From: Sulfobacillus thermotolerans
Lineage (GTDB): Bacteria; Bacillota; Sulfobacillia; Sulfobacillales; Sulfobacillaceae
Assembly: GCA_002951815.1 (NCBI GenBank)
Contig: CP019454.1
Coordinates: forward strand, 3,087,837 to 3,111,836
Reading direction: 5' to 3'
DNA length: 24,000 nucleotides
Position 1 is the stretch's first letter, and each line of letters opens with the position of its first letter. This document shows, one piece after another, positions 2,023 through 23,300 of this stretch. Position numbers and translations under genes: made by a program. Under the pieces are notes generated by a model, which was not told the origin of the DNA, made no database searches, and saw only the letters and a program-made list of their open reading frames with translations.

Positions 2023-2217
2023 GCCGTGCCCTCCTAATTGGATAATCATTCGTGATGCATTACAAGAATTCCTGCCTTGTCACACGATTCGCTGCTCTGA
2101 TAATCCCCTTGCTCTCCTTTACTTGTTATTATATAGTATCACAGGGGCTTTAAATTTTTCCCCATTTTCGTCCATCACCGCGAAGATGCCCGACACCCCT
2201 GAACAGGAGGATTATAC

Positions 2218-2556
2218 ATGGCAAAAATTGCATTCTGGATTACTGCTGGCCCAGGCTTGGAGGAAAAGGTTCTGGCCAACTTAGTGCTAGCCGGTCGCCT
2301 CAAGGCCAATCGCAATCAAGATATCGAAGTCTATTTCTTTGGCCCTGGCGTTAAATTGGCTGGTCAAGCCGAAGGCCATCTGGCTGAAGCCTTAAAAACC
2401 CTCTCCTCCGGACAAGTCCCCATGGGCGCGTGTCCTTTTAACGCCGACCAATATGGCGTCACGACCACTGTGACTGAACAGGGCATTCATATGGAGCCTG
2501 CCGGCGAGGCCCTTGTCCGTCTGACCGAGCAAGGTTACCAGATTGTCGGTGTCTGA
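2218..2556 (+). CDS. DsrE/DsrF-like family protein (small sulfur-relay-like protein)
   Basis: 112 aa. AGGAGGA SD sits 6 nt upstream. The pattern KIAFWITAGP..EVYFFGPGV...GACPFNADQYGV resembles DsrE-family proteins. A strong terminator follows. Confidence 0.55.
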   Translation: MAKIAFWITAGPGLEEKVLANLVLAGRLKANRNQDIEVYFFGPGVKLAGQAEGHLAEALKTLSSGQVPMGACPFNADQYGVTTTVTEQGIHMEPAGEALVRLTEQGYQIVGV

Positions 2557-2578
2557 GCATTAAGTTCTTCAGCTCACC

Positions 2579-2618
2579 AATCCTTGGGGCATCCGCGTCT
2601 CGCCCCAAGGATTTTTTT
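2579..2618 (+). terminator. Rho-independent terminator
   Basis: 12-bp perfect stem AATCCTTGGGGC / GCCCCAAGGATT (2579-2590 / 2602-2613), 11-nt loop, then a T7 run. Confidence 0.85.
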
Positions 2619-2963
2619 GACCTCTTTTAATTAATGATGAGGTCACAACTGCTATTGAAGACCGTTCATGCCCTGCCATAGCCATTACCCACTTTCGGCA
2701 TAAACCGTCAAACTTTGTGCAGCGCCTGCAAATCTTCGCAACATAAAATGAAAGGCCTGACGAAATTCTTAAGGTTTTGCGATCGATTTTCTAGCGTAAA
2801 ACCAAAAATTGGAAAGAAAAAACTAGACGCATTGTCTGGGGTGCGCCATAATAAACCGTGGTTTTTGACAAGCCCATTTTCCGATACGACAGTGCCCTTC
2901 ATAATTCGGGTTTCCTCACCACCATATGGAGCCCCCAATAAAAATGACGATTGGAGAGAAAAA

Positions 2964-3188
2964 ATGTTTAAGCATGTTGTCTATGCCCTTCGGCACCTTA
3001 TGATCCGCGCCGCTTTAGAATACTGGCGTTGGCGCATGGTGCGCGCTGAACATGACGTTATGCGGCTTACTTATAGTCAGCAGTGCGATCTTTGGATTGT
3101 CAGGTATCACCGTCTTTTAAACTCCCGGCCTACTTCTGCAAGACCTTTAGAACGCGTACGCACTGAACGCGTCAGCAACCAGTACTGA
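2964..3188 (+). CDS. Hypothetical small basic protein (74 aa); doubtful
   Basis: Distal part of track ORF 2715..3188. ATG at 2964 is preceded by GGAGAG. There are no recognisable motifs. The last 82 nt overlap the convergent lspA 3' end. Confidence 0.2.
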   Translation: MFKHVVYALRHLMIRAALEYWRWRMVRAEHDVMRLTYSQQCDLWIVRYHRLLNSRPTSARPLERVRTERVSNQY

Positions 3189-3538
3189 ATCACCAAGGCA
3201 ATCATGCCGAGCCGAATGGCAATGTCCCCTAAATTGAAGACAAAAGGGTATCCCGGAACCCGCCAAAAGTCGACGATCCCGCCCCATAAAAGACGTTCCG
3301 TCCAATTAGCCAACGCACCCGCAAAAATGATGGCCAAGACCGTCTGGTATTCTCGCCACCGCCACCATGCGGCAACCAGGGCCGCCATGGCCAGCGCTGA
3401 GACAACGGCTAGGCTCCATGACGGGGCGTAAGCTAACAGACCAAACGCCATGCCGCGATTAAAAATCACGCCCTGTCTTCCAATGTTTGCACGGTTAACA
3501 ATCCCGAGGCCCAAGGCCGCAATATAGACGATCAACAT
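3107..3538 (-). CDS. lspA: Lipoprotein signal peptidase II
   Basis: LspA motifs are present: FNRGMAFG, FAGALANWTERLLWGGIVDFW and FNLGDIAI, with 4 hydrophobic helices. I prefer the ATG at 3538 (MLIVYIAALGLG, which starts in TM1). The track start at 3637 adds 33 non-hydrophobic residues and has no SD. Confidence 0.8.
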   Translation of the reverse strand: MLIVYIAALGLGIVNRANIGRQGVIFNRGMAFGLLAYAPSWSLAVVSALAMAALVAAWWRWREYQTVLAIIFAGALANWTERLLWGGIVDFWRVPGYPFVFNLGDIAIRLGMIALVIQYWLLTRSVRTRSKGLAEVGREFKRR

Positions 3539-3599
3539 GATGAGCCCCGTACTCCATCCTCTTAACCTCTTGTCCACGTCCGGACCTTTTCCCCCTATG

Positions 3600-3621
3600 C
3601 TACAATCTCTATATAATGTAG
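3600..3621. promoter_or_regulatory. CTACA-N12-TGTAG dyad in the lspA / blaI-like divergent promoter region; candidate BlaI/CopY-type operator
   Basis: CTACA (3600-3604) and TGTAG (3617-3621) overlap the -10-like hexamers TACAAT and TATAAT. BlaI, MecI and CopY repressors are known to recognise TACA/TGTA dyads. Confidence 0.3.
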
Positions 3622-3646
3622 GCTTATTAACCACCATAGGAAATGG

Positions 3647-4042
3647 GTGAGAACCATGCCACTAACAACACGCAACCACCTTCGCAATCAAATTTTGAAC
3701 ATTATTCGTGGGCAAGGCCAAGCCACCGTGAAATCGGTCTATGAAGAAATCTTGAAGAAGCGCGCCGTATCCATCAACACCGTGGCTACTGTCATGAACC
3801 GTTTAGTCACCCAAGGTCTCCTTGTACGCCAAGGCGGGGTGCGCCATTACTCGTATCAGCTTACCCCTGAAGACGGGGTCGCCAAAGCTCGGGCGCTACA
3901 ATCTGTGGAAAATCTCTTATCCGAATTCGGTGAAACCGGTCTTGTTCACTTTGTTGACGCCGTAGACGAAATTGAACCCGGCGCTCTAGAAAAACTCGAA
4001 GAAATTTTACACAGCCGCAAAAAGGAGAAAGGCCATGACTAA
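3647..4042 (+). CDS. BlaI/MecI/CopY-family winged-helix transcriptional repressor
   Basis: 131 aa. TVKSVYEEILKKRAVSINTVATVMNRLVTQGLLVRQ..HYSY fits the penicillinase-repressor fold pattern. There is an 8-nt overlap with the downstream M56 peptidase gene. The start could instead be the ATG at 3656. Confidence 0.7.
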   Translation: MRTMPLTTRNHLRNQILNIIRGQGQATVKSVYEEILKKRAVSINTVATVMNRLVTQGLLVRQGGVRHYSYQLTPEDGVAKARALQSVENLLSEFGETGLVHFVDAVDEIEPGALEKLEEILHSRKKEKGHD

Positions 4043-4904
4043 GACCGTCAGTTCCTGGATTTGGCTTGGAGGGTTGGCTTCGGTATTAGCACTTCCTGTG
4101 TTGCTATTGGGAGCGCTTGATGCAACCCTCGCTCACCATCTCGCTTGGGCCCTCATGAAATCCCCCATGCACCCGGGGCCTATGACGGTCCCCTTATGGC
4201 TTGTTGTTTTAGGTCTTTTCGTGTCTGCCTTGTTAGGTGGATATCTTTATCGCCTCATTGCTATCAGCACCCGCCATATCAGAGAACAATCGACCATCGC
4301 CGCAAAGCTCGAATCTCGCTTGTCCCCACTACCGGAGGAACTCATTCCCCCTAACTTGGCCCCATCAAACCAGGTGCGTTTCGTCAGTCTAACGGAAAGC
4401 ACACCCCATGCCTTTACCTACGGCTTTCGTACCCCCACCATCGTCATCGCGCATTCCATGCAACATTTGCTCGACCGCCAAGCTTTAGCTGCCATCATCG
4501 CCCATGAATATAGTCATGTCCGTTCGCAAGATTATGCGATTCAACAGCTGTTCATAATATTGATTCACACACTGCCTGGGTTTGGTTTCGGCACACTATA
4601 TCGCCAATACTTAACCATTCGGGAAATTCAGGCCGACCAATTTGCCACCTCGTGGCAGCATACTCCCGATCATTTAATTCATGCGATGGTGGCTACCGTG
4701 CGTGCCCTGAAAAACCAACCTGCCGCCCCCTTTCCAAGCGAACCCGCTTGGAATAGCGGCTGGCAGGCACGTATTGACGCCCTAGCATCTTCTGATGGAG
4801 GGAACTCCCATCATCCCGTTGGCATTCTCTGGCCATTTCTGACCTTTCCCGCCATCAGTTCGAGCCTTTTTGTTGCAGCATGTATCGCGGTGGCGTGTCA
4901 CTAA
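4035..4904 (+). CDS. BlaR1-like membrane M56/M48-type zinc metalloprotease (anti-repressor/sensor)
   Basis: 289 aa. It has N-terminal TM helices, the HExxH motif IIAHEYSHVRSQD and a C-terminal TM, and is translationally coupled to the BlaI-like gene. Confidence 0.7.
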   Translation: MTKTVSSWIWLGGLASVLALPVLLLGALDATLAHHLAWALMKSPMHPGPMTVPLWLVVLGLFVSALLGGYLYRLIAISTRHIREQSTIAAKLESRLSPLPEELIPPNLAPSNQVRFVSLTESTPHAFTYGFRTPTIVIAHSMQHLLDRQALAAIIAHEYSHVRSQDYAIQQLFIILIHTLPGFGFGTLYRQYLTIREIQADQFATSWQHTPDHLIHAMVATVRALKNQPAAPFPSEPAWNSGWQARIDALASSDGGNSHHPVGILWPFLTFPAISSSLFVAACIAVACH

Positions 4905-4916
4905 AGCGGACCCTAC

Positions 4917-5789
4917 TTATTGAGCCATCAGATCAGCGTTTAGACCACCCGCGATGCGGCCCATACCCTGGGACACCACAATGCGGACGGGTAACGCCGT
5001 CATCGATGCCCCCGCTTTTGCGGTATATGAGACTTGCCCTTGACTATTGGTGGTTAGATGCGTGCCGCCCGAGGAACTCATCGAGGATCCCCCCATAGAC
5101 GAGGAAGCTCCGGGCGTTTTCGGCGTGACACTGACACTCGCTCCAGACACCGGGCCTGAAGGACTCATGACCGTAATCGTAAGCGGCTGAGATGATCGTG
5201 CGGCAACCACCCGGGCAAACGGTTGAACCACAACGTAGTCGCCGACTGGAGCCGTCGGATTTGTCGTGGACGTTGTCCACCAAGCATCCATGAGCCCCGC
5301 TCCTTTCATGGAAGACGGATTAAACGTACTTAAAGAACCCACTTTGATGCCAATCATCTCCATCGTCTTGGTGGGCTGGCCACGGAGCACAATGGTAGCT
5401 TGTCCCATGCTGTTCGTTGTTTTCGAATAGCTTGCCACGTAAGGCGAAGCCGTTTGGGCGCTAGTCGAATACCACTGGCTCACCCCGGCACCTAACGGCA
5501 CCATGGGCCCAATATAGACGGTCACAGGTTGATTAGCCGCCGGTTGTCCACTGGCCGTTGTGGCCGTTACGACAAATGTGGCTTCTTGCCCAGCTTGGAC
5601 CATTTGAGCCGTTTTATTGGTATTGAGTTCTGCCACCGTCACGGAAGATGCAGCGGAACTTTTGCTAGCGGGTGTGCTGCTCATGGTGCTCGAGCCAGAC
5701 GTCTGAGGCTTGGCGGCTTGCGATGTGGTCCCGCATCCGGCCAACACGGCCGTCAAAGATACGGCCACCCCGATTACTCGTTTGGTCAT
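4917..5789 (-). CDS. Secreted lipoprotein with bacterial Ig-like (Big_1-type) segments
   Basis: 290 aa. It has the lipobox VLAGC, an S/T-rich linker and the Big-like strings GQEATFVVTATTASGQPAANQPVTVY and TTNSQGQVSYT. SD GGGGAGG lies upstream. Confidence 0.65.
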   Translation of the reverse strand: MTKRVIGVAVSLTAVLAGCGTTSQAAKPQTSGSSTMSSTPASKSSAASSVTVAELNTNKTAQMVQAGQEATFVVTATTASGQPAANQPVTVYIGPMVPLGAGVSQWYSTSAQTASPYVASYSKTTNSMGQATIVLRGQPTKTMEMIGIKVGSLSTFNPSSMKGAGLMDAWWTTSTTNPTAPVGDYVVVQPFARVVAARSSQPLTITVMSPSGPVSGASVSVTPKTPGASSSMGGSSMSSSGGTHLTTNSQGQVSYTAKAGASMTALPVRIVVSQGMGRIAGGLNADLMAQ

Positions 5790-5818
5790 AAACTTGCTAA
5801 CCTCCCCAAGAAGCTTTT

Positions 5819-5841
5819 GTAAACTACATTTTGTAGTTTAC
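5819..5841. promoter_or_regulatory. Perfect 10-bp inverted repeat GTAAACTACA-TTT-TGTAGTTTAC (TACA/TGTA dyad); candidate operator
   Basis: Read directly from the sequence. It lies 30-52 nt upstream of the lipoprotein start codon, is AT-rich with a 3-nt spacer, and has no flanking T-run on either strand, so it is unlikely to be a terminator. Confidence 0.4.
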
Positions 5842-5875
5842 ACTGCATTAGAATCTCCTGGCAAGGCATGCCCGC

Positions 5876-6502
5876 CTATGACATGGGAGCAAACTGGCTT
5901 GCAATCAATTCGTTAGAACCCGCTGAAGCCGGAATATAGATGCGAAACAACTGTAAGCGGACGTACGTTCCATCTTGTTGAAAATCTAACCGGTAAGCAG
6001 GTCCTCCCACGCCATAAATCAACATCCATTGGGCTGCAACCCCATCAGCCAACATCACATTGGCCACACTGGCCGGTTGATACGCCGGATCGATGGGTGT
6101 GTTTGATTCGATAGCCAACATGTTGTTGAATTCCAGGTCTAAGTCCGGTCCATCAACATAACTTTCTTCTAATGCCGTATCCGGATAAGCATGCGTCGGC
6201 AATAGAAGATGCAAATGCAGGGAACGGGCCCGTGCTAAGGCGTTAGTCCACACGCTACCCGAATAAGCCATCTTGGCCAACCCGTTAGGTCCTACCGGCG
6301 CGCTACCTGGCGATGACGGCAACACGCTTTGGCGATGCACATGGCGTGCATGATGCGCCCGCACGGTCGCAATAGCTTGGGATTGTACCGGATGCGTTAC
6401 GGGAATAACAGGCGGCAACAACAAAGAAACCCCTCGGTAAAAGACCACCACCGCGGCTAGGCCGCCAACCACGGCCCCGATTCCCTTGACCCATGCCCTC
6501 AC
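5876..6502 (-). CDS. Membrane-anchored hypothetical protein (N-terminal TM, extracytoplasmic domain)
   Basis: 208 aa. SD GGAGGTGG lies upstream. There is one N-terminal hydrophobic helix (GIGAVVGGLAAVVVF). No family was recognised. Confidence 0.55.
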   Translation of the reverse strand: MRAWVKGIGAVVGGLAAVVVFYRGVSLLLPPVIPVTHPVQSQAIATVRAHHARHVHRQSVLPSSPGSAPVGPNGLAKMAYSGSVWTNALARARSLHLHLLLPTHAYPDTALEESYVDGPDLDLEFNNMLAIESNTPIDPAYQPASVANVMLADGVAAQWMLIYGVGGPAYRLDFQQDGTYVRLQLFRIYIPASAGSNELIASQFAPMS

Positions 6503-6578
6503 TCGTCCACCTCCTGATGCTGTATCCCTATCGTTATTGTACTGGACAATGCCGATCTATGGGCGGGCATACGGGATT

Positions 6579-7475
6579 TTAAGCCATACTGGCCGGAACT
6601 CGCATGACGGTTTGCACAAAACGCTCGCCAATTCGCGTCATCGCATCACGATGATAGACCAATGAAAACGTTCGGTATAAACTCAACCCCGCGACTTGCA
6701 CCGAGGCAAATAAATCGCGCTCTCTTGGCTCAATCGTGAGCGGAGACAAAACACTAACCCCCAGTCCTTTAAGCATCATCTGCTTAATCGCATGTGTTGT
6801 CCCTAAAACCAAACGAATATTTAACTGCTTGAGATCAATCCCTTCATAGCCTAAAGCATTTTCTAAAGCCATGCGGGTCCCTGAACCTGGTTCACGTAAA
6901 ATTAATGGCTCTTCCATGAATTCTTCTAACGTCACTTCCTGGCGTTCAGCCCAAGGATGCGTGCGTGCCACCATCACCACCGGCTGATCATCAAAAAATG
7001 GCCGGACCACCACCTGTGCATCGACCATAGGCGCTTCAATAAGACCTATATCCAAGGTATGATTGAGCACTTGCTCGAAAACTGTACGTGAATTGGCCAT
7101 GGTAACGGACCACCGAGCATTAAGCATATCCCGGCAATACTCAGCCAATATACCCGGCAATAGATATTCGGCAATGGTCAAACTCGCCCCAATAGCGAGT
7201 ACTTGGGGACGGTTATCCGTTAACTCCTGCACCGCGTCTTGCGATTCATGGATTAGCCGCAGCAAAGCAGTGACATAGCGATATAGCACTTCACCCATTT
7301 CCGTCAGGTGTACCCCTTGGCTAGTACGTACAAAAAGGTGTGTCGCATAAGATTGCTCAAGCATTTGAATTTGTTGACTGACAGCTGATTGGGATAAGTT
7401 GAGAGCTCGCGCCGCTTGAGAAATCGAGCCCACTTCTGCTACCATCTTAAAAGTCGTCCAGACTTGTTCGTTCAC
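6579..7475 (-). CDS. LysR-family transcriptional regulator
   Basis: 298 aa. It has the N-terminal HTH FKMVAEVGSISQAARALNLSQSAVSQQIQMLE and a typical LysR substrate-binding-domain length, and is divergent from a membrane protein gene. Confidence 0.9.
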   Translation of the reverse strand: MNEQVWTTFKMVAEVGSISQAARALNLSQSAVSQQIQMLEQSYATHLFVRTSQGVHLTEMGEVLYRYVTALLRLIHESQDAVQELTDNRPQVLAIGASLTIAEYLLPGILAEYCRDMLNARWSVTMANSRTVFEQVLNHTLDIGLIEAPMVDAQVVVRPFFDDQPVVMVARTHPWAERQEVTLEEFMEEPLILREPGSGTRMALENALGYEGIDLKQLNIRLVLGTTHAIKQMMLKGLGVSVLSPLTIEPRERDLFASVQVAGLSLYRTFSLVYHRDAMTRIGERFVQTVMRVPASMA

Positions 7476-10693: not shown

Positions 10694-11452
10694 ATGCGGC
10701 CGTTATATTGGATCGTCGCATTAGGATTTGGCCTTCTGACGATTAATGCCAATCCGGTCATTAGCTGGCCTGGGCTCAGCCCCCAGTCTGATCCTGTCTC
10801 GATTCCAGCACCTCAACCCTTCTCGTTGCAACCGCCCTCACAAGGCGAGCCCTTGGAAATGAGCCGGAACTGGGCCGGATATGTCAATTCCAGCGCCACC
10901 TACACCGCTGTTCAGGCCACGTGGCGTGTTCCAACCCTTATCTCCAATGGCTCATTAGCCATCTGGGTCGGTGTCGGCGGCGCCCCTCAAAGGCGGTTGC
11001 TGCAAGCTGGCACATTGACGAAAAAGACCGCTTACGGTACCAAAACCATATTGTGGATTGAAGGATTACCGCAACCATTAAAACCCATTGCCCGCAATTT
11101 GCCAGACGGCGCGCCAGTGCATATTGCCATTACCCATGTCAAAGCGGCTCGGTGGAATTTGACACTGCAAGCGGGCAACTACCGGCAAATTTTTCATGTC
11201 CGCTATCCACTCACCGCGAAGAGTGCCGAGTGGATCGTCGAAGACCCTCTGATTAATAATAAGTTCGCCCACTTTCCCACCTTCCATCCTATCGAGCTGT
11301 TCTACGCTAAAGCCCAAACAAGCACGGGTGTGACCGTCACCGCCAAACAATCCATGCCCATCGATTTGCGCATTCATGGCGCCATTGATGCCGCTCCCAT
11401 TTTAGTCAGCAACACCACGTTTGCGGTGAGCCTGCCCGCCTTTCGTCCCTAG
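10694..11452 (+). CDS. Peptidase family G1 (eqolisin / scytalidoglutamic-type glutamic peptidase), secreted
   Basis: 252 aa with an N-terminal signal or anchor. The ordered G1 hallmarks are present: SRNWAGY, TWRVPT, IWVGVGG, LLQAGT (candidate catalytic Gln, codon 11003-11005) and AEWIVEDP (candidate catalytic Glu, codon 11228-11230). Confidence 0.8.
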   Translation: MRPLYWIVALGFGLLTINANPVISWPGLSPQSDPVSIPAPQPFSLQPPSQGEPLEMSRNWAGYVNSSATYTAVQATWRVPTLISNGSLAIWVGVGGAPQRRLLQAGTLTKKTAYGTKTILWIEGLPQPLKPIARNLPDGAPVHIAITHVKAARWNLTLQAGNYRQIFHVRYPLTAKSAEWIVEDPLINNKFAHFPTFHPIELFYAKAQTSTGVTVTAKQSMPIDLRIHGAIDAAPILVSNTTFAVSLPAFRP

Positions 11453-11579: not shown

Positions 11580-14500
11580 TTAGACCGTCAACGCGGTATC
11601 GACCCCATCAAAATACACCATGAACGTTCCCGCATCGGTCGCCGTATAGGGGACGGTAAAGGTTTGACTACCTGTCGAGGCACTGGTCACCGCCGTATAC
11701 ACCGCCCCGGGGGCGAGATTCCCGACCGTATCAAGATCACTAGAAGGCACGATGACCACCGATTGCCCAGAGGATACACCCGTTCCGTCGTTCACTGTCA
11801 CTACAAGGCTACTACCCGATACCGCTGCAACGACGGTGGGCGATGACGGGGTTAAAAGCGTCACGGGTCGAATTTGAGACGGACGCTGGTAGTTGTCGGT
11901 GACGGCCGTGGTGATGCCCGCTTGTGTCAGTGCATTGACACTCACCGCAATCACATCCCCTGAGGGAAGTTCGGGATTTTGGCCCGACAATGTCAACACC
12001 ACTTGAGACCCGTTCACCTGCGCTGACGCTATCTGATATTGTACGTTGGTGGTCAGATCTGTCACCGTAAACTGAGACCCGTTGGGTAGCACAGAATCTG
12101 GATTCAGAGTTCGCGAGAAGCTGACGGTCAATTGGTTAGGCAGATTATCGGCGCTCAAGCTGAGCGATACGGGGGTTAGGGTAGTGGGAACCGGCGGCTG
12201 TGTCCATGTCACATGGCTGATCAGCCACTGGGAACTTCCGACCATTTGTGCCATAACCGTATCGCTTTCTCCAAGACTGCCCGAGGACAATCCGACTTGG
12301 GCGAAACCACTGGCGTTTGTCGTGGCTTGGGAGTTCGTAAGGACCGCTGTTTGTTGACCGGATACAGAAAATGCAATCGGAACGTTAGTCTCAGGGCTGC
12401 CATTTGGACCCAGCACTTGCACCGTCAGGTCTGCGGTTTGCCCAACCGCCGCCAATGCTAAGGGAGTTGGTGCCCATTTAAGCACCGGTGCATCATTGGA
12501 CGTTTGCCACTGAACAGGAATGGTCAAGTGCGCATAGGCCGATGTGGGCCCTTGACCCACGTCGGGCCCGCCATCAATCCATATGGCCTCTGGCAATGCG
12601 GAATCTACCGCCAGCGTGATGGCTTGCGACCCCGGTTGCGAAGAGGCATCTTCAAAGGTAGCCTGCCCCTGGGCATTTGAGATCACATCCACCTTATTCA
12701 GCGTCCCTGTCCCCGTTCCCGTGATGGAGATCTCCATTCCCTCTAATGGCATCTGACCGGCCAATAAAGTCATCCCGAACTGCGTGGAGCCTGGTGTCAA
12801 CGTCACCAAAGGCGCTTGAGTAAAAGCATTAGACACATCTAAATTCTGGCCTCCTTGGGGTGTATAAATTAAGCTGACAGGAAGCCACTGCACCATAACG
12901 GTAGGGGAAGGGGCCATCTTTTGATCACTGACCATGGTCTCAAATCCTTGACTAAACGCCGACACAATGGCTTTGACATTCCCCGCTCCGGTCAATACCA
13001 CAGACGCCGTGCCGTTAGCACCTGTCTCGCTTTGTTTCGTCAAGACCTGAACGCCGGCCCCACTAATTTGCCATGTCACAGGCGTACCCGCGGCCACCAG
13101 ATTACCATTGTCATCCGTAACAGTCGCGGTGACTTGCACCGTTTGTCCCGCCAAAGCATTCCCCCACGGTTCACTTGCTGCTTGTGAGGTGGGAACAAAT
13201 GATACGGCCGTATATAATCCCGGCAAAGGAAAGGCCACGCCAGGAATTTGCGGTACTCCGTAGAGTTCGGCAATTCCTGATTGCCGCGCCCTCACACTTC
13301 CCGAAGGGTCCCATGTCAGCTGAGGTGCCGCCAGCGCTTCAGAAGGCGTCACAGGGATGACGCTTTGACCTGATATCAGGATATTTTGGCCTTGTCCATT
13401 GTTTTGCGATGGAATCCAATAGGCCGCGGTAACCGCGCCTCCGCCAAGCGCTTCAACGACGCCGTCTCCCACTTCGGGATATACCGGCACTGCGGCTTGA
13501 TACGTGGTGCCTTCTTGATATTGCGTTCCTAAATCAGCTGCGGCCTGACTTGCACTTAAAGGGCTAAAAGCGGTGAAACTAATCGGATTCGCCGTCCACG
13601 TCACGTCGCTCGCCGGAACCCGAAGACTTGTGACACTTTGGGCAAGGGGATAATAGGTCACAAACTGCACCCCCACCCCTGTAGCTTGTACACTCGTCAC
13701 GGTCGACGGCGCGGTAAGCGTAAACGTTAATTGGCCGCCATCAGACTGAGCCGGAAGTTGCACACCAAAATTATTGGCGGCTAAGGGCCCCGTCAACACC
13801 CGCACGTAAGGAGTGGAACCATCTTGAGGTGTGTACGTGACCGTTAAGGCACTACCCGCTGACAACCCTAAACTTGAAATGTTTACGCTAGCGCTCGAAA
13901 AAGCTTGCGGTACTACAATAGGCACAGAATGCCATACAGTATCGGCTCCATAAGAACCCGATGTTTGGTTCACCGCAATGGTCTGTGGCGCGGTCGAGGT
14001 TTGTGGCAGCAAAAATTGCGCAGAAAGCATCGGCTCAAGGGGCACGCCGGTGTTCTGGCTCACCGCATAGGCTTGCGTTTGCATCGATGTCCCAAGCCGT
14101 TGGCTCGTCATGACGGAGCCCGTCGCAGATCCGATGGTGGTTCCAGTCTCATTCAGCGCTGCGAAAAGGACTTGCCCTTGAACGGGCTGCAAGGCGGGGG
14201 CCGATGGCACTGAGACTTGATAACCGACGGCGGTCACAGCAGAGGCGTCTAAGGCTAGGGCTGAGGAAGAATTGTCGTTGGGATTGGTCACTGTCATTGT
14301 TGTGGTGGCAATGCCCTGGGCATTGGTGACAGCATTGCCATTTAATCCTTGGGGAAAGGTCACATGGTCGGCTGGATTCGAATCATTCGTCGCCGTAAAC
14401 ACCACCGGAACATCCGCCAATGGTTGACCATCAGCTCCTGTCACCACCGCTTGCACTTGGGCCGTTTGCCCCAAGAGCAGGGCATTAGGATTACTTAGCA

Positions 14501-15224
14501 CTGATAAAGGATTCATGAGCGAGGTCGTCAGGGAATCCGCTGCCACGGTCTTTGGTGCAGCGGTAAACGTATGGGTCTGACTCCACACGGCATCTTGATT
14601 GGTATTAGGCGCTGCCGGATCCTTAGCATAAGCAATGATATGATACGTGCCTGCTTCCGGCGGCGTGTAGGTAAAAGAATGGTTGCTTTGATATCCGCCA
14701 CTCGCCGTCCATTGCCCTTGGGGATTTTCCACCCAAAATTGGTAAACCGGTGAAATGAGGTTGCGTGCTTGAGCTACGACTGTCATTCCCTGATTTTGCG
14801 TAGCGGTCGATTCCACACTGAGATGCACCGCACTCCCGACATTCACAATGGCCGTCGCCACCGATGCTTGATCCCATAAGCCCGAATGGACAGAAGAGGC
14901 ACTAAGCGCGTAGACCGCCACCACATAGCTTCCATCTGCGAGAGCCAATTGAAACCTCGGATTGGGGGAATAATTGCGCGCCATGGACCAACCTTTCTGG
15001 GTTTGGACCCAAAATTGATAGTCGGCCGATTCCCCAGTGGCGACTGCCTGAAACGTCACGGTGTGGCCAGCTTGTGCTGTTCCATAGCGGTTCAGTGAGA
15101 GCTGTGTGAGATTTTGTGGCGCGGAGGAAGCCTGCACTACAGAGGTATTGAGAACAGAGGCCGCGAGTCCCGCCACGAAGAGACTCCGACCCAAACGTTT
15201 GCTGAACAGAGATAAAACCTCCAT
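11580..15224 (-). CDS. Large secreted surface protein (1214 aa): 2 N-terminal YQFW-type (triple-tyrosine-like) repeats plus several Big_1-like Ig domains
   Basis: The signal peptide ends at VVQA/SS. Two tandem repeats of about 100 aa carry YQFWVQTQKGW and YQFWVENPQGQW. There are at least three invasin-like units (GQTAQVQAVVTGADGQPLADVPVVF, GQTVQVTATVTDDNGNLVAAGTPVTW, GQTADLTVQVLGPNGSPETNVPIAF). No SLH, LPXTG or PEP-CTERM-like anchor is seen. No SD precedes the ATG. Confidence 0.85.
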   Translation of the reverse strand: MEVLSLFSKRLGRSLFVAGLAASVLNTSVVQASSAPQNLTQLSLNRYGTAQAGHTVTFQAVATGESADYQFWVQTQKGWSMARNYSPNPRFQLALADGSYVVAVYALSASSVHSGLWDQASVATAIVNVGSAVHLSVESTATQNQGMTVVAQARNLISPVYQFWVENPQGQWTASGGYQSNHSFTYTPPEAGTYHIIAYAKDPAAPNTNQDAVWSQTHTFTAAPKTVAADSLTTSLMNPLSVLSNPNALLLGQTAQVQAVVTGADGQPLADVPVVFTATNDSNPADHVTFPQGLNGNAVTNAQGIATTTMTVTNPNDNSSSALALDASAVTAVGYQVSVPSAPALQPVQGQVLFAALNETGTTIGSATGSVMTSQRLGTSMQTQAYAVSQNTGVPLEPMLSAQFLLPQTSTAPQTIAVNQTSGSYGADTVWHSVPIVVPQAFSSASVNISSLGLSAGSALTVTYTPQDGSTPYVRVLTGPLAANNFGVQLPAQSDGGQLTFTLTAPSTVTSVQATGVGVQFVTYYPLAQSVTSLRVPASDVTWTANPISFTAFSPLSASQAAADLGTQYQEGTTYQAAVPVYPEVGDGVVEALGGGAVTAAYWIPSQNNGQGQNILISGQSVIPVTPSEALAAPQLTWDPSGSVRARQSGIAELYGVPQIPGVAFPLPGLYTAVSFVPTSQAASEPWGNALAGQTVQVTATVTDDNGNLVAAGTPVTWQISGAGVQVLTKQSETGANGTASVVLTGAGNVKAIVSAFSQGFETMVSDQKMAPSPTVMVQWLPVSLIYTPQGGQNLDVSNAFTQAPLVTLTPGSTQFGMTLLAGQMPLEGMEISITGTGTGTLNKVDVISNAQGQATFEDASSQPGSQAITLAVDSALPEAIWIDGGPDVGQGPTSAYAHLTIPVQWQTSNDAPVLKWAPTPLALAAVGQTADLTVQVLGPNGSPETNVPIAFSVSGQQTAVLTNSQATTNASGFAQVGLSSGSLGESDTVMAQMVGSSQWLISHVTWTQPPVPTTLTPVSLSLSADNLPNQLTVSFSRTLNPDSVLPNGSQFTVTDLTTNVQYQIASAQVNGSQVVLTLSGQNPELPSGDVIAVSVNALTQAGITTAVTDNYQRPSQIRPVTLLTPSSPTVVAAVSGSSLVVTVNDGTGVSSGQSVVIVPSSDLDTVGNLAPGAVYTAVTSASTGSQTFTVPYTATDAGTFMVYFDGVDTALTV

Positions 15225-15500: not shown

Positions 15501-15950
15501 ATGACTTCACCACTATGGCGTTTGTCTGGCGTCTTGGGCATCGCAGCCACCATGGTTTTGGCACTTGGCAGCATGACCATGGCAGCAAGTAACTCAAACT
15601 CTACGCAAGAAGGCTATGTTAGCATTACCAATGTTAAGGGCAACACAGCAACGGCGACATGGTACTGGTCTGGATTAACAGACGGAGAATATGTGGCCGT
15701 GGAAGCGATCTACAATGGCACCACCACGCCACTACCAGCGTCTGACGGAACAGTCACAACAGCAGGTACTTACTCGACCACTGTGACGCTCCCTCCAGGT
15801 GATACATCGTGGTCGAACACGACCATTGAAATGGCTGAAGCAAACTTTGCCGAGGGGCAACTACCCGAAGTTCCGTGGGCTGCAGGCCTTCCGTTGATTT
15901 TAGTGTTGCCATGGGCCGTTTCGGCATGGCGTCGTCGTATTCCGGGGTAA
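15501..15950 (+). CDS. Small secreted T/S/N-rich protein with PEP-CTERM-like C-terminal sorting signal (LPEVP, hydrophobic helix, RRR)
   Basis: 149 aa. The signal peptide is LALGSMTMA/AS. The C-terminus LPEVPWAAGLPLILVLPWAVSAWRRRIPG (nt 15861-15947) has the tripartite motif, TM helix and basic-cluster layout of exosortase substrates. Confidence 0.7.
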   Translation: MTSPLWRLSGVLGIAATMVLALGSMTMAASNSNSTQEGYVSITNVKGNTATATWYWSGLTDGEYVAVEAIYNGTTTPLPASDGTVTTAGTYSTTVTLPPGDTSWSNTTIEMAEANFAEGQLPEVPWAAGLPLILVLPWAVSAWRRRIPG

Positions 15951-18768: not shown

Positions 18769-18925
18769 TTCATTCCACGCCTTTTGGGAATCTGACAGGT
18801 TTCTTAAAGGGGTCTCGTAAAAAGAAGCATCGACGGAGCTCTATATCTTTTCAGGTTTAGCGGTCTTTATGGAAAGCGAACCGACGCCACAGCTCTTGGT
18901 GCTTGCATGCGCAAGGAGGCATCTC

Positions 18926-19969
18926 ATGCATTATTTACGTTTATTATTCGCGAGCGCCCTGGCGTTAACTTTGGCAGGGTGTGGCCAAAAAGCTGCCGTT
19001 CAGCCCGTTGCCACACACCCACCCCACAAGGTGCACGTCGTTGCCAAGCCTTTAGTAGCTCCCCCTTGGCCCACAGTTCAATCAGGCATCAATGTCGAGG
19101 TGTGGAATACCCCGACCCCTTCTCAAATTGATGGCGTGATAAATGCTGTGGCTGCCTTGCACGTTCGCACCGTTGCCATTGTTATTCCTTTCGGACAAAG
19201 CAATTGGCAAGCCAATAATGTTGGCCCTGTGCATTTTACGCCGTCGCCCCGTGTCATTCGCCAGGTCATTTTGCAAGCGTACCACGATCATCTCAGCGTC
19301 ATGCTTCGTCCCATGTTAGACGAGGGCACGTTAACGCCTTCAGGTCATTGGCGTGGTGATATTGCACCGCAGTCATTGAACAGCTGGTTTAAGCACTATG
19401 CCCAGGCTCTCACCCCTTACGCTGCATTAGGACAACAAGAGCATGTCGGGGCTTTTGATATCGGCACAGAGCTCTCGTCAATAGAAAGCGATAACCAAGG
19501 CTGGGATACGGTTATACACGCGGTGAAACAGGTATATCAAGGCCCGCTCTTGTACTCGTTTAATTGGAATAGCCCGAGCTTAGCTGCCCTGCCACCATGG
19601 ACCAAACAATTAACGTGGATTGGTCTTGATGCCTATTATCCACTCAATACGCCTTCCGGTACCGAGTCGGCTTTGGTGCAGGCATGGCAGCCTTGGATAT
19701 CACAAACCGCTAAAATCCCTAACCTCGTCATCACGGAACTCGGCGTTATGCCCAAGCCTCATGCTTGGCAAGCCCCATGGGTCTGGGATCCTCCGGGACC
19801 AACGAACTGGTCCGTGCAAGCCCAATATGACGCAGCTGCCATTAAAGCGTGGCAGGGCCATGCCCAGGGTCTCTATTGGTGGGGCGTCATGCTGCCACGC
19901 TCAGGCCAAGGCGCCTCATTTGACCCCATTTGGCACCCGAGTGCGGCCGTGATTCAAACGGCATGGTAA
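18926..19969 (+). CDS. Lipoprotein, clan GH-A-like TIM-barrel glycoside hydrolase candidate
   Basis: I prefer the ATG at 18926 (AAGGAGG SD 6 nt upstream; MHYLRLLFASALALTLAGCG lipobox) over the track start at 18869. Candidate catalytic glutamates lie in FDIGTELSS and LVITELGV, about 90 aa apart as in (beta/alpha)8 retaining hydrolases. Confidence 0.6.
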   Translation: MHYLRLLFASALALTLAGCGQKAAVQPVATHPPHKVHVVAKPLVAPPWPTVQSGINVEVWNTPTPSQIDGVINAVAALHVRTVAIVIPFGQSNWQANNVGPVHFTPSPRVIRQVILQAYHDHLSVMLRPMLDEGTLTPSGHWRGDIAPQSLNSWFKHYAQALTPYAALGQQEHVGAFDIGTELSSIESDNQGWDTVIHAVKQVYQGPLLYSFNWNSPSLAALPPWTKQLTWIGLDAYYPLNTPSGTESALVQAWQPWISQTAKIPNLVITELGVMPKPHAWQAPWVWDPPGPTNWSVQAQYDAAAIKAWQGHAQGLYWWGVMLPRSGQGASFDPIWHPSAAVIQTAW

Positions 19970-20485: not shown

Positions 20486-22732
20486 TTACACAGCCGATTC
20501 TTGTGCAGAGTTCCCCATGACCGAGGTGACATCATAGGGTGCTGTGCTTAATCCGTGTACGGTTTTTTCCCAATGAGATGGCCGTGTGATCAGCTGCATT
20601 AAGGCTTTCCAAGACGCTAAAGACATCATGCTCCAATAAATGGGGGTCAGCACCGTATACGGTACCAGCTCCCAATTCCCTCGTTTGGCTACCCCCAACG
20701 CGTTAATATAGGTAAAGATGAAATTGCCGGCTAACAGATTAATCATACCTAAGTAATAGATGCCCGGAGGAAATAACGACGGAATCACATGCCAGTGGGT
20801 CATAAACCACAAACTCGTAAGAAACCAATACAGCGGGTTTAACAAAAACATGAGGGGAGTCCCTAAAATAGACATTTGAAATCCCCAAAATCCTCGTGCT
20901 CCCATGGACCGGTAGAGTTTAATGGGATGGCGCATATGCACCAACCATGTTTGAATATAACCTTTAATCCACCGTGAGCGTTGGCGAACCCAATTGACAA
21001 ATTCAGAGTTGGCCTCTTCATACGTATTCGAATCGATGACGGAAGCATAGTAACCGGCTTTGTAAAGGCGAATGCCTAGGTCCGCATCTTCGGTAACATT
21101 GTAGGGATCCCATCCTCCTAACTCGCGCAAGCGGTCAATGCGAAAATGGTTCGATGTCCCCCCTAAAGGAATGGGCAGCTTAGCGCGATATAACGCCGGT
21201 AAAAAGAGGTCAAACCACGATGCATACTCCGCCGTGAACCACCGCGTTAATAGGTTTTGTTCCGCATTAAAATAGGAGAGCTTGGCCTGGACACACGCCA
21301 GTTTATCGTCATGCTGACGAAATGCCACAATGGCTTTTTTGAGTTGCAAAGGTTCAGGCAGATCTTCCGCATCAAAAATGGTTACGTACTCCCCTCTGGC
21401 CAGTTGCAGTCCGTAATTGCAGGCTTTGGGCTTAGTGCGTGGCTCGCTTGGGGGGACAATCACGATATCGATGAAGTGCGGTAAGTTAGCGGCCTTTGCG
21501 GCCGCAATCGTGTCCTCGTCGTCAGCTTCAAGCAGTAACTTGACGTCGAGTCGGTCCTTTGGATAGTCAAGAGCATTTAGTGCCCGTGTTAGAGTTGGCA
21601 AGACGGCCGCTTCTTCACGGGCTGGTACTAAAATCGTATAAATCGGTAAATCGCGCTCGTCTAATGCCGCAACCATATCCTGACTCCCTAAGGCGGAATC
21701 AGGAATATCCGTGCCTTGGCGAATCATCCACAGACGATAGGCGATAGTCACAGAGTACATAATGATAAGCAAGCTACTGAGGACCGATATGGCCACACTA
21801 GGATGCCACACTAAGAGCGCGACGACACAAGCTAAGGTGACCGCAACACTAACCCATTGTCTTCGTGTCATAGTCTTTCGGGCAGAATCTTCAGGCCGAA
21901 CGGTAGCCAGGTGGTCACGGCTCATAGCCATATCAACAACGTGAAATCGGGCCGTTAACACGGCCTCAATATCACGCTTGCCAGACACCATAACTTGAGG
22001 AGCAGAGGGCAAAAGACGCTCTAATTCCTCCACCGCTTGTTGTGACTGCCACGGATCTTCGACAGCCAGCACAGCCGCCGACCCACTCCATCCAATGGGT
22101 ACCATCCGGGCTTGGCGCCAAAACTGTTCCTCCCTTAGAGCCCAGACATGGCTCAGATTGGGTTCGTGGGCAATTTTTTCTGGATCTTGTGCTAACAAGT
22201 TTACTTCCGGAAGGTTGAGTTGCGACGCTACAACCCGGGCCACCCCCCAATAAGTGAGGACCCGGTGCTGAACCAAAATTTGGCCGAGTTTTCCACCGCG
22301 CCGTGCCTGTTCTGCCAACGCGCTGTCAACATCGCGCGAGGAAATGAGCCCTAAACGTCTCGCGGTTTCTCCGAAATAAGATGATGGCCGCACATCATGG
22401 TGTTCACCCAAGACGCGTCGGTACGCGTGAGCAATGCTCCGCGCACTCGCACGGTAAAGTGTTACCGGCACGACAATGCGTCCTAATAAAGCTCGTGCGT
22501 CATCACTTAAGGGAAACACCGCAGCCACACAGACCCTGCCCGAATCAAACCGAAAGGCTAGCAGGCCAGCCTTTTGTGCACTGGCCGCATCTAACATGAG
22601 TGCTGCACTCGGGTCAACGGGGTCATGGATTTGTCCCTGAGAATTCCTTGTGGGAAAGAGGTCGATGCTCTCAATGTCCTCTTGAGATATCGCGGCCATG
22701 GAATCCACAAAATGACTCGGATCGACTATCAT
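20486..22732 (-). CDS. Processive family-2 glycosyltransferase (exopolysaccharide synthase) with N-terminal T2SSE_N/MshEN-like domain
   Basis: 748 aa. The N-terminal roughly 290 aa carry two tandem 24-residue MshEN-like motifs, YFGETARRLGLISSRDVDSALAEQ and KLGQILVQHRVLTYWGVARVVASQ, separated by the spacer ARRGG (nt 22220-22378). TM helices follow, then a GT2 core with YTILVPAREE, FDAEDLP and RQRSRWIKGY (QxxRW), then C-terminal TM helices. Confidence 0.85.
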   Translation of the reverse strand: MIVDPSHFVDSMAAISQEDIESIDLFPTRNSQGQIHDPVDPSAALMLDAASAQKAGLLAFRFDSGRVCVAAVFPLSDDARALLGRIVVPVTLYRASARSIAHAYRRVLGEHHDVRPSSYFGETARRLGLISSRDVDSALAEQARRGGKLGQILVQHRVLTYWGVARVVASQLNLPEVNLLAQDPEKIAHEPNLSHVWALREEQFWRQARMVPIGWSGSAAVLAVEDPWQSQQAVEELERLLPSAPQVMVSGKRDIEAVLTARFHVVDMAMSRDHLATVRPEDSARKTMTRRQWVSVAVTLACVVALLVWHPSVAISVLSSLLIIMYSVTIAYRLWMIRQGTDIPDSALGSQDMVAALDERDLPIYTILVPAREEAAVLPTLTRALNALDYPKDRLDVKLLLEADDEDTIAAAKAANLPHFIDIVIVPPSEPRTKPKACNYGLQLARGEYVTIFDAEDLPEPLQLKKAIVAFRQHDDKLACVQAKLSYFNAEQNLLTRWFTAEYASWFDLFLPALYRAKLPIPLGGTSNHFRIDRLRELGGWDPYNVTEDADLGIRLYKAGYYASVIDSNTYEEANSEFVNWVRQRSRWIKGYIQTWLVHMRHPIKLYRSMGARGFWGFQMSILGTPLMFLLNPLYWFLTSLWFMTHWHVIPSLFPPGIYYLGMINLLAGNFIFTYINALGVAKRGNWELVPYTVLTPIYWSMMSLASWKALMQLITRPSHWEKTVHGLSTAPYDVTSVMGNSAQESAV

Positions 22733-23161: not shown

Positions 23162-23204
23162 GAGATTAGAAAAACTTGGAAGAACCAAGTCAAGCATTGA
23201 AACG

Positions 23205-23300
23205 GCCGATAAGGGCAAACCTGATTGAAAAACAGGGACGCAAAACTAAAGGGGCTTCTTACCATTACGGTAAATGCCAGCCAGTTGCCGAAACGGGACA
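23205..23300 (+). promoter_or_regulatory. c-di-GMP-I (GEMM-I) riboswitch aptamer
   Basis: The sequence reads aaGGGCAAACCtgattGAAAaacagGGACGCAAAaCtaaaGGGGc..(hairpin TTACC/GGTAA)..gCCAGCCAGTTGCCGAAa. This matches the GEMM-I core as I recall it: GGCAAACC, a GNRA-type hairpin, GGGACGCAAAGCC, a second hairpin, then AGCCGGGUUACCGA. GGCAA and TTGCC can close P1. Confidence 0.75.

Follow-up and report, generated by a model that had tools for sequence, protein, structure and literature searches.

A XagB-type glycosyltransferase with a predicted MshEN receptor for cyclic di-GMP in an exosortase-linked locus of Sulfobacillus thermotolerans

Control of a family 2 glycosyltransferase (GT2) by an MshEN domain, a receptor for cyclic di-guanosine monophosphate (c-di-GMP), is established for NfrB of Escherichia coli and was predicted in 2016 for the architecture in which MshEN precedes GT2. 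Wang et al. (2016) reported MshEN domains fused to glycosyltransferases and listed, in their Supplementary Table 4, both "Glyco_trans_2_3 - MshEN" (NfrB) and "MshEN - Glyco_trans_2_3", the latter with Rhodobacter sphaeroides Rsph17029_0522 and with occurrences in Actinobacteria, Firmicutes and Proteobacteria. NfrB binds c-di-GMP and depends on its MshEN motif as well as on its GT2 active site, and a dedicated cyclase, DgcJ, acts on it locally. In Xanthomonas, the xag genes contribute to biofilm formation and respond to the RpfG c-di-GMP phosphodiesterase pathway, and XCC0678 was aligned and predicted to be a c-di-GMP binder by Wang et al. (2016). The present study concerns a gene of this architecture in a window of 24,000 nucleotides from Sulfobacillus thermotolerans (assembly GCA_002951815.1, contig CP019454.1, positions 3,087,837 to 3,111,836 of the forward strand). 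We consider that it probably encodes a XagB-type processive GT2 that polymerises and exports an exopolysaccharide (EPS), is gated by an MshEN receptor for c-di-GMP and acts within a c-di-GMP regulon. The initial annotation of the window had implied that control of EPS polymerisation through MshEN was novel; since this architecture has been on record since 2016 and control of GT2 activity by MshEN is established for NfrB, confirmation would extend known biology and overturn nothing. The synthase joins a known architecture, that of the XagB family, as a new member, and its regulatory principle has been demonstrated in NfrB.

The open reading frame (ORF) joining MshEN to GT2 that had been reported in the window is real (Table 1). 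It is the single ORF of 748 amino acids in its interval and lies on the minus strand, the plus-strand translation being riddled with stops, and a Shine-Dalgarno sequence (AGAAAGGA) stands 8 nt upstream of its ATG at 22732. A homologue search with the protein retrieved 2924 sequences at E<=1e-10; of the 120 listed, nearly all combine MshEN with GT2. The nearest, 98% identical, comes from a metagenome-assembled genome of Sulfobacillus thermosulfidooxidans, and several carry the Joint Genome Institute name "glycosyltransferase XagB". Relatives were found by a reference-genome scan in Bacillota, Chloroflexota, Actinomycetota, Proteobacteria and other phyla, Xanthomonas included; the XagB family, with MshEN before GT2, counts thousands of sequences in many phyla. 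The full-length AlphaFold2 (AF2) model, built on 52 homologues, reached a mean predicted local distance difference test (pLDDT) of 88.8 and a predicted TM-score of 0.83, and a separate model of residues 1-290 reached a pLDDT of 90.8.

XagB (KEGG K20327; XCC0678) is the closest described system. It shares with the Sulfobacillus protein the order MshEN, transmembrane hairpin, GT2 and C-terminal transmembrane bundle, and the two are 42% identical over residues 108-729 (tblastn, Xanthomonas loci; phmmer E=4e-154). The protein of the Xanthomonas locus has MshEN and GT2 in Pfam. In Xanthomonas cucurbitae, a protein with an N-terminus nearly identical to that of XCC0678 is encoded in a four-gene operon (a 340-amino-acid protein, the MshEN-GT2 protein, a 452-amino-acid protein and a glycoside hydrolase of family 113, GH113), an arrangement that fits xagABCD; we infer from this operon structure, not from a locus-tag table, that XCC0678 is XagB. 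A GH113 partner is common to both systems, and that of the window matches the Xanthomonas GH113 at E=1.8e-15; it is the counterpart of the GH113 gene in the xag operon. In the window, L082 and five related contigs, phmmer gave no hit at E<=0.01 to counterparts of XagA (340 amino acids) or XagC (452 amino acids); here and below, L numbers denote related loci, L082 being the 59-kb contig that carries the window locus together with sequence beyond the window end. The Sulfobacillus synthase differs from XagB in being 113 amino acids longer and in having an extra subdomain at residues 36-108. Its partners are an exosortase, a protein with an LPEVP-type C-terminal sorting signal (LPEVP-CTERM), a TIG-domain protein controlled by a riboswitch and a small transmembrane protein, and its host is a Sulfobacillus-like Gram-positive acidophile.

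The other described systems are more distant. NfrB, the N-acetylmannosamine-polymer synthase of the phage N4 receptor pathway of E. coli, likewise joins GT2 to MshEN through two transmembrane helices; NF012033 aligns residues 119-261 of the Sulfobacillus protein with model positions 492-625, and 46 of the 52 family members match NF008411. However, the order in NfrB is reversed (GT2, then MshEN), on the NfrB model (NF008411), whose cutoff is 1170 bits, the Sulfobacillus protein scores 8.1, and NfrB works with outer-membrane NfrA and with YbcH, which are absent at the Sulfobacillus locus. The cellulose synthase BcsA shares the D, DxD, TED, QxxRW core and the membrane channel fold (Foldseek E about 5e-13), as well as the principle of gating by a c-di-GMP receptor covalently attached to the synthase and the presence of a glycoside hydrolase partner (BcsZ, compared with GH113 here). 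In contrast, its receptor is a C-terminal PilZ domain, whereas MshEN lies near the N-terminus of the Sulfobacillus synthase, no BcsB partner occurs at the Sulfobacillus locus, and the synthase scores 55.9 bits against a cutoff of 699 on the CelA model. Finally, the pairing of a GT2 with an exosortase recalls the XrtG-associated (TIGR03111) and XrtP-associated (NF053846) glycosyltransferases; matches to both models are weak, with 24 bits against a cutoff of 364 and 26 bits against a cutoff of 520, respectively.

The synthase half of the protein carries the signatures of a processive GT2. The D,D,D,QxxRW pattern and the flanking transmembrane helices of the initial annotation were both recovered: EADDED at 402, DAED at 454-457, TED at 547-549 and QRSRW at 584-588 are invariant in 52 homologues, and hydrophobicity and the AF2 model support the transmembrane segments. 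Because an even number of helices, two, lies between MshEN and GT2, both domains are placed in the cytoplasm. Residues about 290-720 align in Foldseek over 450-500 columns with hyaluronan synthases, BcsA and chitin synthases (8smn, 7sp7, 4p00, 5ej1) at E values of 1e-12 to 1e-14, and BcsA is also matched in sequence searches (E about 8e-9). The AF2 helices of the C-terminal bundle (603-644, 656-683, 687-693 and 696-716) align with the transmembrane regions of processive synthases. No PilZ domain was matched in the synthase by Pfam. The modelled protein thus resembles a membrane-embedded processive GT2 of the BcsA and hyaluronan synthase kind, for which processive synthesis and export are predicted.

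The proposed receptor centres on residues 119-171, which read YFGETARRLGLISSRDVDSALAEQ-ARRGG-KLGQILVQHRVLTYWGVARVVASQ, two 24-residue halves separated by a 5-residue spacer. This sequence and its 24+5+24 layout had been given exactly in the initial annotation, together with the correct substitutions: Y119 and K148 in place of Arg at position 1 of each half and R157 in place of Gly at position 10 of motif II. A further one, R125 at hydrophobic position 7 of motif I, had gone unmentioned. The c-di-GMP motif has a model of 53 positions in NCBIfam, NF053729, which aligns residues 125-171 with its positions 7-53 at E=3.9e-9, in a register identical to that first proposed, and as a sequence match this is far beyond chance. 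The score is 36.2 bits for the full-length protein and 38.8 bits for the isolated domain, the curated cutoff being 38; 50 of the 52 family members match the model. The Pfam profile MshEN (PF05157), a search with which had been suggested as a check, scored well above its gathering threshold (46.1 against 23.1 bits), but the aligned stretch, residues 202-261, belongs to the C-terminal subdomain and not to the binding helices, and we rejected this match as support for the motif at 119-171.

Structural comparison points to the same domain. Both subdomains of the MshEN fold, an N-terminal four-helix bundle and a C-terminal alpha/beta subdomain, are present in the AF2 model, with helices at 120-126, 132-145, 149-155 and 161-171 predicted at a pLDDT of about 95. 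The best match of the 1-290 model in the PDB is c-di-GMP-bound GSPII-B of Thermus PilF (8pdk; TM-score 0.80, root-mean-square deviation 2.5 A), and c-di-GMP-bound MshE of Vibrio cholerae (5htl) is matched with a TM-score of 0.70; the match spans about 145 columns and covers whole MshEN/GSPII domains. In phmmer searches of the PDB, residues 118-228 align with PilF GSPII-C (E=3.4e-12), the best sequence match, and alignments to PilF GSPII-B and to the N-domains of MshE and PilB were also obtained. MshE and PilF GSPII-B and GSPII-C thus share with the synthase the two-subdomain fold and the 24+5+24 motif; they differ in regulating secretion or pilus ATPases and in having motifs nearer the consensus, at about 60 bits. 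Given the register of NF053729, the predicted fold and the matches to the PilF GSPII-B and MshE structures, the motif positions map onto the MshEN helices. The assignment to MshEN/GSPII is therefore supported at three levels, namely Pfam, the 53-residue motif profile and the predicted fold.

The domain had been described as N-terminal, which is true insofar as it stands ahead of GT2; it does not occupy the extreme N-terminus, which is taken by the subdomain at residues ~36-108. Residues 36-106 of the latter align in phmmer with the C-terminal subdomain of PilF GSPII domains, its strands and helices (41-108) are modelled at a pLDDT of 82-93, and it is conserved in the family consensus. It resembles a second, orphan C-terminal GSPII half (T2SSE_N1) that comes without binding helices of its own. 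Among 86 related loci, a census with domain-restricted profiles found a full MshEN with detectable binding helices in about 50, the fold only in 7 and no MshEN in 28. A first iterated "MshEN_N" hidden Markov model had been discarded, contamination by whole-ORF alignment having made every GT2 match.

Binding of c-di-GMP by the bundle at 119-171 is plausible and, in our judgement, somewhat favoured, but sequence alone does not decide it. The contact positions 2, 3, 17, 21 and 24 are kept in both halves (F120-G121, V135, L139 and Q142 in motif I; L149-G150, V164, V168 and Q171 in motif II). In the non-binder XpsE, eight positions are changed (G11, I19, L29, R38, G40, L54, L58, Q61), none of which is disrupted in the Sulfobacillus protein. 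In 108 homologues, the Gly at position 3 is kept in 106 (motif I) and 108 (motif II), and the Gln at position 24 in 105 and 106. As for the residues substituted, R, K or L is accepted at position 1, and the change of K167 of PilF to Leu, a large hydrophobic residue, raises affinity (2 nM); as the position is tolerant and a large hydrophobic side chain improves binding, Tyr and Lys are acceptable there. NfrB, whose motif I has Pro at position 1 and Gln at position 10, binds c-di-GMP with a dissociation constant of about 1 uM, and high-affinity binding is proven for PilF GSPII-C, where position 1 is Pro as well (PMC12002112).

Several observations weigh against a functional receptor, or against its place in a local c-di-GMP circuit. 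On NF053729, proven binders score 55-61 bits, NfrB 55.5 and Xanthomonas XagB 43, compared with 36-39 for the Sulfobacillus synthase, whose closest relatives in the Sulfobacillus clade are equally borderline (35.6 to 43 bits). R125 falls at a hydrophobic-core position of motif I. Each motif half fails both regular expressions of Wang et al., the strict one and the relaxed one, the latter, meant for database mining, being [RKPN]hGxxhhxx[GAS]hhxxxxhxxxhxx[QNKRYWST]; the spacing is correct, and the mismatches to the relaxed pattern are two in motif I (Y119, R125) and one in motif II (R157). PilF GSPII-A, a proven non-binder, scores 59.8 bits (with its first six residues reconstructed from the description in the paper), and returning its sequence to the consensus did not make it bind, the site being blocked by a helix cap at the N-terminus and by contacts between the subdomains (PMC12002112); by analogy, the extra N-terminal subdomain of the synthase could occlude its site. 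In the literature searched, we found no published binding or activity data for an MshEN domain N-terminal to GT2. As to the signal, the cluster encodes a GGDEF-domain protein with an AGDEF active site, a variant that is active in VCA0965 and inactive in other proteins, and GGDEF neighbours are confined to the window, L085 and a few distant loci. Two of these measures proved to be poor tests. The three mismatches are about the family median, and most family members fail the relaxed pattern too; the regular expressions were dropped as too rigid, in favour of profile and structure tests. Likewise, the NF053729 bit score was rejected on calibration as a predictor of binding, since the non-binder GSPII-A scores as high as the binders.

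In a first alternative, the MshEN domain would be a GSPII module that has degenerated and does not bind, with a protein-interaction or scaffold role comparable to the XpsE/GspE N1-GspL pair, the Xanthomonas PilB-PilZ pair and PilF GSPII-A, and c-di-GMP would act on the locus solely through the riboswitch and the inhibitory site (I-site) of the AGDEF protein. A motif score 17-22 bits under the proven binders, the Arg in the hydrophobic core, the failure of both regular expressions and the example of GSPII-A, a good motif that does not bind, would all be expected of such a module. Foldseek also matches the non-binders XpsE and PilF GSPII-A, along with the Xac PilB-PilZ complex, and the 7 of 86 loci that keep the MshEN fold without detectable binding helices would fit it as well. 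The AGDEF protein keeps an RxxD I-site, as do the receptor-type GGDEF proteins PssE and YdaK. However, the contact positions are retained in both halves, the disabling changes of the XpsE type are absent, the substitutions at positions 1 and 10 are known in proven binders, and purifying selection on Gly 3 and Gln 24 in over 100 homologues speaks for a ligand site. We therefore regard a degenerate module as unlikely, if worth serious attention, and retain an MshEN domain that binds c-di-GMP as the preferred reading.

For a binding domain, the following mechanism is envisaged. A monomer of c-di-GMP would bind the four-helix bundle. Contacts with the guanines and the backbone would come from the FG and LG turns (F120-G121 and L149-G150) and from Q142 and Q171, the bases would stack against Y119 and K148, and hydrophobic lids would be provided by V135/L139 and V164/V168. 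Binding would shift MshEN relative to GT2 and relieve autoinhibition, as in NfrB and, with PilZ, in BcsA. The C-terminal helical bundle would then serve as the exit route of the polymer, which the GH113 lipoprotein encoded next to the synthase would trim.

Table 1. Features of the synthase gene and its neighbourhood (positions in the window)
Feature	Position	Strand	Basis or remarks
MshEN-GT2 (XagB-type) synthase gene, 748 amino acids	20486..22732	minus	ORF; Pfam MshEN and three GT2 models
Extra N-terminal alpha/beta subdomain, residues 36-108	22409..22627	minus	phmmer, AF2, family consensus
Predicted MshEN_N four-helix c-di-GMP-binding motif, 53 residues, 119-171	22220..22378	minus	sequence, NF053729 register, AF2 helices, family conservation
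MshEN_C (T2SSE_N1) alpha/beta subdomain, residues 176-262	21947..22207	minus	best stretch of PF05157 202-261; Foldseek
Transmembrane hairpin, two helices, residues 290-341	21710..21865	minus	Kyte-Doolittle segments 290-335; AF2 helices 290-309, 311-341
GT2 catalytic core, residues 360-600	20933..21655	minus	Pfam Glyco_tranf_2_3 365-591, Glyco_trans_2_3 449-646
GT2 motif DAED	21362-21373	minus	
GT2 motif TED	21086-21094	minus	
GT2 motif QRSRW	20969-20983	minus	
C-terminal helical membrane bundle, putative polymer channel, residues 603-716	20585..20926	minus	AF2 and Foldseek
ORF of 77 amino acids, two transmembrane helices	22729..22962	minus	stop overlaps synthase ATG (ATGA)
c-di-GMP-I riboswitch aptamer, divergent intergenic region	23204..23292	plus	Rfam RF01051, 70.3 bits (gathering 35), E 3.6e-12, model 1-87/87
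5' part of the gene for the riboswitch-controlled secreted protein, 663 amino acids	23373..24000, runs off window	plus	signal peptide; full gene L082 6698-8689
GH113-family glycoside hydrolase lipoprotein, convergent with synthase	18869..19969	plus	Pfam GH113, 89.5 bits; lipobox LTLAGC
Exosortase-family protein, 541 amino acids	17143..18768	plus	Pfam Exosortase_EpsH, 63.9 bits
GGDEF-domain protein, 241 amino acids	16174..16899	plus	Pfam GGDEF, 116 bits; sequence IRRSDQLIRWAGDEF
Secreted protein, 149 amino acids, candidate exosortase substrate	15501..15950	plus	C-terminus GQLPEVPWAAGLPLILVLPWAVSAWRRRIPG: LPEVP motif, transmembrane helix, RRR cluster

Evidence that the cluster belongs to a c-di-GMP regulon comes, independently of the MshEN motif, from the riboswitch. 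It lies about 80 nt upstream of the gene of the 663-amino-acid protein, which is divergent from the synthase, and it would control this secreted product, in which a weak GH51-like region is combined with an IPT/TIG domain, the ArfA and TIG matches both being weak. In L001 (S. thermosulfidooxidans), L084 and L085, the homologous gene adjoining the synthase is likewise preceded by a riboswitch of the same clan, and this recurrence supports the assignment to the regulon. The copies in these loci (L001 6843-6927, L084 2129-2222, L085 14287-14371) score best as RF03167 (c-di-GMP-I-GGC), that of the window as canonical RF01051, and ligand specificity may differ between the orthologous riboswitch loci.

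The 77-amino-acid ORF adjoining the synthase has homologues within the cluster in L001 (E 2.4e-7) and in L085 and L086 (E 4.6e-6), in the last two immediately downstream of the synthase; on L082 it was missed by the gene caller. We regard its two-helix product as a probable accessory membrane subunit of the synthase. A c-di-GMP-dependent stabilisation of a synthase and its small subunit has a precedent in PgaCD.

This gene bears on a second alternative, in which the MshEN domain does bind c-di-GMP but with an output other than simple activation, such as inhibition, control of oligomerisation or localisation, or recruitment of the 77-amino-acid membrane protein or of the exosortase. No mechanism is known for any MshEN-GT2 protein, the conserved small transmembrane gene is translationally coupled to the synthase, and c-di-GMP control at the locus may be of either sign, a promoter and terminator scan of the divergent intergenic region having been uninformative as to the expression platform of the riboswitch. 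Nevertheless, all the characterised c-di-GMP-responsive GT2 synthases (BcsA, NfrB, PgaCD, BgsA) are activated, and in Xanthomonas loss of the RpfG phosphodiesterase raises xag-dependent biofilm, though transcriptionally. We consider such an output improbable and expect activation of the synthase by c-di-GMP.

The polymer itself could be a beta-mannan-like glycan, as suggested by the sequence likeness of the GH113 protein, whose nearest relatives in the PDB are endo-beta-1,4-mannanases (E 3e-7). GH113 adjoins the synthase in six further loci (L002, L019, L026, L029, L037 and L041), downstream of it in L026 and L037. That the enzyme might instead modify lipid carriers or the LPEVP-CTERM and exosortase substrates, as its tight linkage to exosortases across phyla (also in homologues devoid of MshEN), the PMT_2-type and GtrA-GT2 genes of the cluster, typical of lipid-linked glycosylation, and the non-processive mannosyltransferase PcManGT among the Foldseek matches could suggest, is very improbable in view of the invariant QxxRW and TED motifs, the alignment of the C-terminal bundle with channel-forming synthases, the dedicated GH113 partner typical of synthase-dependent EPS systems and the requirement for XagB in EPS-dependent biofilm of Xanthomonas.

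The exosortase of the window exceeds the generic exosortase/archaeosortase signature TIGR04178 (45.4 bits against a cutoff of 23) and falls far below the cutoffs of all named Xrt subtypes; it has a C-terminal domain of about 240 amino acids. In the closest homologues of the synthase (L083, L084 and L085; 57-60% identity), an exosortase gene lies directly upstream on the same strand. The pairing of exosortase and GT2 is found with MshEN in Bacillota and without it in the Actinomycetota and Dormibacterota loci L055, L058, L061, L067, L074 and L076. The sorting signal of the 149-amino-acid protein also occurs near the exosortase in L084 (7226-7717) and twice in L085 (16985-17266, 5017-5649). These C-termini share GQLPEVP(W/Y)AA..LPL, followed by a transmembrane helix and a basic cluster; variants with PEAP are found in L058 and L052, and no Pfam or NCBIfam model matches the signal. 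From their sequences, the small LPEVP proteins are candidate substrates of a Gram-positive exosortase system with a PEP-CTERM-like signal, which probably anchors proteins of the matrix.

The GGDEF-domain protein may supply or sense c-di-GMP locally. Besides the AGDEF active site, it has an intact RRSD I-site and an N-terminal LuxR/GerE-like helix-turn-helix (HTH) segment, and it is 23% identical over 194 amino acids to a 236-amino-acid GerE-type regulator (L082 2665-3375, minus) that has lost the GGDEF motif; judging from this similarity, they may be paralogues, both of them HTH-GGDEF-like regulators. In L085, a GGDEF-EAL gene is found at the equivalent position. We had expected a conserved linkage of GGDEF genes to the synthase, which was not upheld, and since few of the related loci show such a neighbour the linkage is only suggestive.

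The genes of the closest homologue loci recur as a set comprising PMT_2, TIG, GT2-GtrA, AAA_16 and LuxR-type genes. On L082, the interval 753-6638, upstream of the riboswitch-controlled gene, encodes PMT_2-type and GT2-GtrA glycosyltransferases, an AAA_16 protein and the GerE regulator, and because the synthase is accompanied by this set in L085 too, the conserved cluster extends beyond the window.

A broader proposal can be made tentatively, and we hold it with less than even confidence: Sulfobacillus-type Gram-positive acidophiles may possess an undescribed matrix module that senses c-di-GMP twice, through MshEN on the polymerase and through the riboswitch on the TIG/GH-like gene, in which an unclassified exosortase and the new LPEVP-CTERM signal attach proteins to the polymer or the cell surface, and the HTH-AGDEF protein gives a local signal or feedback. 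Searches of the literature on Sulfobacillus with exosortases or c-di-GMP yielded nothing on this locus. As one small cluster unites a riboswitch and a protein receptor with a cyclase-like gene and with a Gram-positive exosortase that has a candidate new sorting signal, both control by c-di-GMP at multiple layers and the function of the exosortase are testable, and the context, an exosortase-linked matrix locus with riboswitch and MshEN in a Gram-positive acidophile, is of more interest than the synthase itself. In Sulfobacillus species, which are organisms of biomining, attachment to sulfide minerals depends on EPS, so a locus with a c-di-GMP-controlled synthase would offer a handle on this process; furthermore, an orthologue from a thermo-acidophile with a confident model is a possible target for biochemical or structural work.

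Two further genes adjoin the cluster in the window. One, at 11580-15224 (minus), encodes a secreted protein of 1214 amino acids with Big_1, Y_Y_Y and MG2-like Ig repeats, and the other, at 10694-11452 (plus), a peptidase of family A4, an acid-active glutamic peptidase. Both are consistent with a cell-surface or matrix region of an acidophile.

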